A stretch of 6,537 bases of DNA from a virus. Lineage: Duplodnaviria; Heunggongvirae; Uroviricota; Caudoviricetes. Positions 5,772 through 6,537 of this stretch are shown piece by piece. The DNA lies in IMG/VR virus record IMGVR_UViG_2585427756_000018. One strand, written 5' to 3'. Positions within the stretch are counted from its first letter, which is position 1; every line of letters begins with the position of its first letter. Under the pieces are notes generated by a model. The model ran no database searches. It was not told the DNA's origin and saw nothing but the letters and a program-made list of their open reading frames with translations. A program made the translations under genes and the position numbers.

Positions 5772-5971
5772 TTACATCATCATGTCGCTGTCAGGTGTGG
5801 GTTCACCGCCATCTGAAGCACTCCCGTCACCCGCGATACCTTCCGGCTCCGGAACCGCTGGTACGCCCAGCAGCTCATCCAGAATGGCATCCACTTCTGC
5901 ATCAAGACGCGACTCAAGGTTCTGGCGGAGTTTCTGTTTCAGTGCGCTCAGGACTTCTTCAGAGCGCAGGA
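5772..5971 (-). pseudogene. 3' fragment (66 codons) of an unidentified gene whose 5' part is cut off by the IS insertion
   Basis: Minus-strand frame open from the IS boundary to TAA at 5774-5772: …[65 protein letters not shown]. No start codon; the frame runs straight into the IS left end. The two plus-strand ORFs here (5762..5974, 5782..6000) are antisense to it. Confidence 0.5.
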
Positions 5972-6025
5972 TGAACCGCCCCGGGAATCCTGGAGACTAA
6001 ACTTCCTGAGAAAGAGGTAAACAGG

Positions 6026-6352
6026 ATGACTAAAAATACTCGTTTTTCCCCTGAAGTCCGTCAACGGGCAGTCCGTATGGTTCTGGAAAGTCAGGGCGAA
6101 TATGACTCACAATGGGCGACAATTTGTTCCATTGCTCCAAAGATTGGCTGTACGCCGGAGACTCTGCGTGTCTGGGTTCGCCAGCATGAGCGGGATACCG
6201 GGGGCGGTGATGGAGGGCTCACCACCGCTGAACGTCAGCGTCTGAAAGAGCTGGAGCGTGAAAATCGTGAACTGCGCCGCAGTAACGATATCCTTCGCCA
6301 GGCTTCCGCTTATTTTGCGAAGGCGGAGTTCGACCGCCTCTGGAAAAAATGA
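6026..6352 (+). CDS. IS629-like transposase OrfA (108 aa, HTH DNA-binding plus leucine-zipper-like region)
   Basis: [108 protein letters not shown], recognised from memory as IS629/IS1203-type OrfA. AGAGG lies 6 nt before the ATG. Confidence 0.9.
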
Positions 6353-6537
6353 TGCCACTGCTGGATAAGCTGCGTGAGCAGTACGGGGTCGGACCGCTAT
6401 GCAGCGAACTGCATATTGCCCCGTCAACGTATTACCACTGTCAGCAACAGCGACATCATCCGGATAAACGCAGTGCCCGTGCGCAGCGCGATGACTGGCT
6501 GAAGAAAGAGATACAGCGCGTATACGATGAAAATCAC
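6349..6537 (+). CDS. IS629-like transposase OrfB, N-terminal part (partial; made as OrfAB by -1 frameshift)
   Basis: Frame -1 relative to orf[64 protein letters not shown], matching the start of the IS629 OrfB region as I recall it. Runs to the window end. Confidence 0.8.

Follow-up and report, generated by a model that had tools for sequence, protein, structure and literature searches.

An IS629-isoform insertion in the DUF826 gene, upstream of the lysis cassette of a lambda-like Escherichia coli prophage

The classical literature on polarity suppression deals with lambda itself and with insertions of the IS1/IS2 type. RNA polymerase loaded with Q transcribes with high processivity, and lambda Q has been proven to suppress polarity (PMC12360218). 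The locus described here shares with the classical polar insertions that are relieved by N or Q the placement of an IS upstream of the genes of interest and, as with those, suppression is expected (PMC12360218). IS629-type insertions between Q and the holin gene S of lambdoid and Stx prophages are documented (PMC4587872, PMC10462455), and IS3-family elements have been reported in the Q-S region of Stx2a phages (PMC10462455). The closest of these systems are prophage Sp5 of E. coli Sakai and phage PA4 (PST1-1), the latter carrying the Stx2a prophage of Sakai (PMC4587872); in both, IS629 has entered nanS-p, which lies between stx2 and S, and the IS is 977 bp upstream of S. Genomes of the PA4 type were assembled from particles released into the culture supernatant after ciprofloxacin induction, precipitated with PEG and treated with DNase (PMC4587872). 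Induced with mitomycin C, Sp5 produces 1e10 or more packaged genomes/ml; it lysogenizes K-12 and is the sole Sakai prophage without predicted defects (PMC2669165), and K-12 Sp5 lysogens in turn yield plaque-forming lysates (PMC5155283).

How does the present locus compare? It shares with Sp5 and PA4 a series of genes (Q, tRNAs, nanS-p, DUF1378, DUF826, an S21-type holin and R), the placement of the IS between the late promoter pR' and S, and an orientation in which the transposase is antisense to late transcription. The differences are these: the IS of the two short-tailed Stx2 phages is in nanS-p, whereas here it is in DUF826, only 276 nt from S, and the lambda-like prophage is a non-Stx one in an ST10 strain. 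The stretch of DNA that was analysed (henceforth the window, 6537 bp) is contig JOSN01000190.1 in its entirety (draft assembly GCA_000713735.1), and it ends inside the IS. The project, JOSN00000000, is that of isolate 2_222_05_S3_C2 (ST10, phylogroup A, O15:H4, 245 contigs), which came from a girl in her first year of life, enrolled in the untreated arm of an azithromycin study in Tanzania (PMC6222053 Table S1). The host is a commensal-type strain. The features of the window are collected in the table.

Table. Features of the window around the lysis cassette and the IS junction (position 1 is the first nucleotide of the contig).
Feature	Position	Strand	Basis or remark
Lipoprotein with TonB_C domain	2423-2749	-	'TonB family protein' in relatives
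Rz spanin, 152 aa	3060..3518	-	Pfam Phage_lysis; 'lysis protein' in relatives
Rz1, embedded in Rz	3122-3307	-	lipobox ORF
R, phage lysozyme, 177 aa	4015..4548	-	Pfam Phage_lysozyme, E=2e-24
296-aa gene, between S and R	4585..5475	-	Pfam DUF1327/YdfR over residues 1-100, plus an extension of ~196 aa
S, class II (phage 21-type) holin/pinholin, 71 aa	5480..5695	-	Pfam Phage_holin_2_1, E=7e-33
Native hairpin between DUF826 stop and S start	5733..5762	-	13-pair stem, terminator-like
DUF826 3' remnant	5772..5971	-	Pfam PF05696; 65 complete codons, 2 nt of codon 16, stop
GGA, expected left copy of the 3-bp target-site duplication	5969..5971		AGGA if the duplication is 4 bp
IS629 isoform (IS3 family), first 566 of 1310 nt	5972..6537	+	contig ends within
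Left terminal inverted repeat (IRL)	5972..6013	+	begins TGAACCGCCCCGGG, read directly
orfA, 108 aa, HTH DNA-binding part of the transposase	6026..6352	+	Pfam HTH_Tnp_1, E=6e-13
ALIL pseudoknot, -1 frameshift stimulator	6307..6423	+	Rfam RF01497, 120.2 bits, E=1.1e-31
orfB, first 63 codons, -1 frame	6349..6537	+	open frame, cut by contig end

The left junction is sharply defined. Window positions 1-5971 align with positions 7001-12971 of an IS-free allele (L002) with 0 mismatches; homology with the IS-free alleles (L001 and L002) ends exactly at 5971, in ...GCGCAGGA, and the sequence diverges from 5972 on, where the window continues TGAACCGCCCCGGG... and the uninterrupted target of the IS-free allele reads GCGCAGGACTTCC. 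The same 5971 bp are matched at 100% by prophages of complete E. coli genomes, LC-1302-2020 and N10 among them, and the phage backbone is 99.8-100% identical to prophages in human and environmental isolates, ST131 included. On the phage side of the junction no damage is seen: the DUF826 stop, S, R and Rz/Rz1, with all that lies between them, are intact.

The nucleotide at 5972, which the preliminary description had already picked out as the left end of an "IS629-like" element, is indeed nucleotide 1 of that element, and the assignment can now be made precise. The 566 nt of IS in the window match, without a single mismatch, the start of a complete copy of 1310 bp (L003:2501-3810, the matching part being L003:2501-3066) that is present at 100% identity in many E. 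coli genomes. The inverted repeat reads TGAACCGCCCCGGGAATCC... from 5972, in keeping with 5'-TG...CA-3' terminal repeats; in the complete copy, the terminal arms are imperfect, 42 nt long and 79% complementary, the right end is ...GGGGCGGTTCA, and the element is flanked by a 3-bp target duplication (CTG). The window itself has the IS3-family two-ORF layout with a programmed -1 frameshift: orfA matches the NCBIfam model transpos_IS3 over positions 1-86, an A6 slippery run at 6344-6349 directly precedes the orfA stop at 6350-6352, the two open frames overlap, and the pseudoknot matches its Rfam model in full (positions 1-117), its score lying well above the gathering score of 50. On identical copies of the element, PGAP annotates a "programmed frameshift". 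The 63 orfB codons of the window, a short stretch, have no Pfam match; the orfB frame of the full copy matches transpos_IS3 over positions 93-369, with 315.7 bits against a cut-off of 160.

ISfinder treats elements of about 95% nucleotide identity or more as isoforms. The 566 nt of the window are 96.3% identical to the IS629 of phage PA4 and the complete proxy copy is 96.0% identical over its 1310 nt; by the measure of near-identity, then, the window element is an IS629 isoform. It belongs with IS629 of the IS150/IS51-type group (related names are IS1203 and IS3411) in its length, in its TGAACCGCCCCGG... termini, in having orfA and orfB joined by a -1 frameshift with an ALIL pseudoknot, and in the 3-4-bp target duplications made by other copies (the 3-bp CTG; the 4-bp AAAG and GGAC). 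It differs from the O157 copy of IS629 at 52 of 1310 positions, it is widespread outside EHEC, and only its first 566 nt are present here. The corresponding element of Sakai Sp5 is annotated "IS629 transposase OrfA/OrfB". Matches to the IS occur in 3717 of 5426 complete E. coli genomes, at a median of 3 places per genome. The idea that an element of this kind hints at an enterohaemorrhagic host background is refuted by that distribution and by the source of the DNA, a resident ST10 isolate: IS629 is no EHEC marker.

Three observations on annotation and assembly may be set down here. 1) The stored gene calls for the contig have a 106-aa antisense ORF at 6107-6427 (minus strand) instead of the true orfA; this call is an annotation artefact at a contig end. 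2) The right end of IS629, outside the window, carries an open antisense frame, NRPGFPGE(Y/C)FICELRLPDHRFRWKHNKLFLLLPEEYGPAFPAIVDCYTSPPT (for example L003:3650-3810, minus strand), which fuses to any gene that the element interrupts; more than 700 such chimeric "proteins" populate the public collections, some under misleading names (FimD, BfpM-like, diguanylate cyclase). 3) The assembler went 566 nt into the IS before breaking, at 6537, which suggests that the genome holds the first part of this isoform only once and that, near the break, a second IS3-family copy of partly identical sequence begins to coincide with it.

What does the element interrupt? The preliminary description had seen the remains of a minus-strand open reading frame, had left its identity to be found, and had allowed that it might be non-coding. 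It is a real coding gene, DUF826 (phrog_311): the remnant at 5772-5969 matches the Pfam model with 115.7 bits (E=1e-33) over positions 17-75 of 75, and the intact allele of 81 aa (L002:12772-13017) matches it with 149 bits over positions 1-75. The point of insertion is codon 16/17. The remnant had been given as 66 codons, a count that includes a hybrid codon at the junction; what is left of the gene itself is 65 complete codons and 2 nt. To call the gene truncated is also imprecise, since the contig ends inside the IS and the 5' 49 nt of the gene may lie beyond it. The only in-frame start in the remnant is an internal GTG at 5894, from which 40 aa could be made. No relative of DUF826 has a solved structure, and NCBIfam has no model for the family. 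Its Sp5 counterpart, ECs_1211, is 67% identical; the text of the Sp5 deletion study makes no mention of ECs1210 or ECs1211, and that DUF826 is dispensable is suggested by the fact that none of the nine essential genes lies there.

IS629-family elements have hit the DUF826 site independently in other prophages. In OkiPb01711 (NZ_AP042673.1) and in the Stx2a phage Stx2_3350 (LC616050.1), DUF826 carries an IS629-type element with a 4-bp duplication, GGAC, and both flanks are contiguous, so simple insertions do occur at this site. The junctions of these insertions (L009:3090-3110 and 4400-4420; L010:3090-3105 and 4400-4415) fall at the site that corresponds to window positions 5960-5975. The gene is the same as in the window and the target is 1 nt off, the window junction lying to the left of the GGAC; the orientation, in contrast, is opposite, with the transposase co-directional with the late genes, and both junctions are visible. 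In GCA_036605105.1 (L008:8582-8660) a homologue of DUF826 is interrupted 12 nt deeper by an element in the window's orientation, and upstream of the interrupted gene nanS-p and DUF1378 follow without a break. Such alleles are rare: the OkiPb01711 type occurs in 1 of 5426 complete genomes, and the window's type in 0 of 5426.

For a simple insertion the right junction of the window's element can be predicted: the IS end CCCGGGGCGGTTCA would be followed by GGACTTCCTTCAC or AGGACTTCCTTCAC, the simple-insertion readings being ...GGGGCGGTTCA(A)GGACTTCCTTCACTGCC..., leading on into DUF1378 and nanS-p, or (A)GGACTTCCTTCAC.... DNA of this kind was absent from the GTDB representatives and from every other DNA collection searched, collections that do not hold this draft genome. 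Exact look-up of the predicted DUF826-IS fusion proteins returned none, a 4-bp duplication being such as to leave a fusion ORF of only 29 aa; two homology searches likewise returned no exact fusion among hundreds of unrelated gene::IS629 ORFs, and one related DUF826::IS fusion (P0136). The exact left junction, too, had 0 occurrences in 5426 complete E. coli genomes, INPHARED phages, IMG/VR, the GTDB representatives and JGI metagenomes, and a Logan contig (L005) with the 40-aa ORF of the remnant begins 25 nt upstream of the internal GTG and so is without the junction. The insertion allele is rare, being known only from three sibling draft assemblies.

Downstream of DUF826 in the direction of late transcription lies a lysis cassette of the phage 21 type: an S21-like gene with dual starts, a lysozyme with a hydrophobic N-terminus and Rz/Rz1, with the SAR function of the lysozyme a matter of prediction. 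The S product begins MYQMEK, with Met1 at 5695 and Met4 at 5686, and the protein is named "class II holin family protein" by PGAP in the identical relatives; the element is 276 nt from its ATG, in agreement with the earlier estimate of about 280 bp. The N-terminus of R, MNTKIKYGLSAAVLALIAAGA, is hydrophobic and putatively SAR-like. The 296-aa gene between S and R matches phrog_1085 over 296 of 296 residues (E=1.5e-189) and is intact. In identical prophages PGAP annotates this stretch as a truncated YdfR pseudogene of 336 bp. The 296-aa frame is probably a conserved phage gene of the lysis cassette that has been mis-annotated.

The 76-nt spacer that separates the start of S from the DUF826 stop contains the hairpin of the table, which is untouched by the IS, is identical in the IS-free relatives and is followed by an interrupted U-rich tract; an 80-nt stretch over the spacer folds with -32.4 kcal/mol (z=-2.96). 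The hairpin could serve in partial termination, or in the processing or stability of the RNA. The minus strand of the window also encodes the 5' part of a large terminase (GpA_ATPase), a Nu1-type small terminase and two small ORFs. Between Rz and the terminase, roughly at the site of the serum-resistance gene bor in Sp5, lies the gene for the TonB_C lipoprotein, which may be a moron.

The upstream part of the late region is outside the window, and relatives that are identical to it over positions 1-5971 were used in its place. They encode a 273-aa Q (Pfam Antiterm, PF03589-type), whose antitermination activity is predicted from its family. Downstream of Q lies TTGATT-N16-TGgTAAATT and, ~60 nt further on, a strong intrinsic terminator, AACCCGCCGCCGAGCGGGTTTTTT; on their sequences this pR'-like promoter and tR'-like terminator form the classic pR'-tR' arrangement. 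The order beyond the terminator is: two tRNAs, DUF3927, iraM (on the other strand), a nanS-p-like esterase (DUF1737-SASA-DUF6645), DUF1378, DUF826, S. The expectation of a late promoter far upstream of the lysis genes is thus borne out in the IS-free relatives, with pR' ~4.5 kb upstream of S and the site of the IS between the two. The native operon crosses several terminator-like hairpins on the way from pR' to S. The antisense strand of the IS, which is the strand that late transcription would encounter, has 2 terminator-like sites against 1.1 expected in shuffled sequence, and what faces the late transcript has a stem of just 5 bp. It had also been foreseen that read-out from the transposase promoter would be directed away from the lysis genes, and so it is: the IS orfs run rightward (plus strand), the lysis genes on the minus strand. 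A scan for outward promoters towards S, borne by the IS or hybrid, found none that was sigma-70-like at the consensus threshold.

Does the IS, then, break lysis? The preliminary description took it that the insertion probably separates the lysis genes from their promoter, a view that is not supported by what is known of Q antitermination, by the hairpins of the native operon, by the lack of excess terminators in the IS or by the example of Sp5 and PA4; the lysis consequence proposed for the prophage is unlikely. The best explanation of the whole, to which we give a probability of about three in four, is that an IS629 isoform entered DUF826, a small accessory gene in the Q-dependent late operon of this lambda-like (Nu1/GpA terminase) prophage, and that the IS itself does not make the prophage lysis-defective. 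The insertion would be a simple one with a 3-4-bp duplication, which should leave the first 49 nt of the gene on the far side and inactivate DUF826; after induction, Q-modified polymerase starting at pR', ~4.5 kb up, would read through the 1.31 kb of antisense IS. S, R and Rz/Rz1 should still be expressed, because such polymerase already passes several native terminator-like hairpins; expression of S relies on Q-modified polymerase in any case, since the native transcript runs through these same structures. A polar IS that terminates or insulates late transcription would have the contrary effect: S, the 296-aa gene, R and Rz/Rz1 would lose their promoter, and the prophage would become lysis-defective or come to rely on a cryptic promoter. 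The position of the insertion, between pR' and S, is as this requires, and 1.3 kb of antisense IS together with a remnant that has lost its start would make untranslated RNA, a classic substrate for Rho-dependent polarity, with no outward sigma-70-like promoter to compensate. All the same, polarity of consequence is quite unlikely, for Q suppresses polarity and terminators (PMC12360218), the operon crosses terminator-like hairpins of its own, the antisense strand of the IS is without a strong terminator, and Sp5 and PA4, whose late operon carries this IS in this orientation too, are fully productive. The precedent comes with a caveat: Sp5 keeps 977 bp of native sequence upstream of S against the 276 nt of the window, and if DUF1378 or the 5' part of DUF826 held an internal promoter or a processing element, this would be lost here and retained there. 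Defects of other kinds could also lie in the part of the prophage beyond the contig.

The other two alternatives concern the junction rather than its consequences. The IS might mark the edge of a larger IS-mediated rearrangement (a deletion or an inversion between copies), leaving Q and pR' no longer contiguous with the lysis and packaging genes in what would be a decayed prophage remnant. In favour of this, the contig shows the IS at its left end only, searches for the predicted right junction came up empty at both the DNA and the fusion-protein level, and many E. coli genomes carry several IS629-type copies. These negatives weigh little, however: the DNA collections lack the draft genome, and a 4-bp duplication would yield the 29-aa ORF already mentioned. 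The other insertions at the DUF826 site are simple, with both flanks contiguous, and the 5971 visible bp are 100% identical to intact-looking prophages; a rearrangement is accordingly held to be unlikely. Could the junction be a short-read chimera of a prophage contig with a repeated IS? The source is a draft in 245 short-read contigs and this one terminates within a repeat. Yet the break in homology coincides exactly with IS nucleotide 1, and the 40-aa product of the truncated ORF (5772-5894) has three GenBank protein accessions, whose source names are 2-222-05_S3_C2 and S3_C3. With at least two sibling isolates so named, the junction is not a one-off assembly chimera; the same site is, moreover, a documented target of IS629-type elements in other genomes. 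An assembly artefact is very unlikely.

Independent hits, three or more of them inside 12 bp, suggest that these elements have a preferred local target, or hot spot. A target motif shared among a few IS629-type flanks was also sought; the likeness is loose and no consensus is claimed. It is tempting to go further and to regard the first 20 codons of DUF826 as a genuine hot spot of the IS629 family, serving as a recurrent switch that tunes prophage lysis, a proposition that we consider improbable. If it were true, insertions next to the holin gene could alter the timing of lysis or the dosage of late genes, by way of the loss of DUF826, of slower or partial read-through, or of antisense or transposase effects on induction; and the three events within 12 bp, two of which share a site in opposite orientations, would be its record.

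The insertion described here is real, precisely delimited and ordinary: an IS629 isoform has interrupted, and probably knocked out, an accessory gene, and the event means little beyond annotation. It carries a caution, in that an IS in a Q-antiterminated operon is not to be read as a disconnection of genes from their promoter. The recurrently hit site in DUF826 is another matter: it provides natural knock-outs that can be set against intact alleles beside identical lysis cassettes, and thereby a way to probe the role of DUF826.
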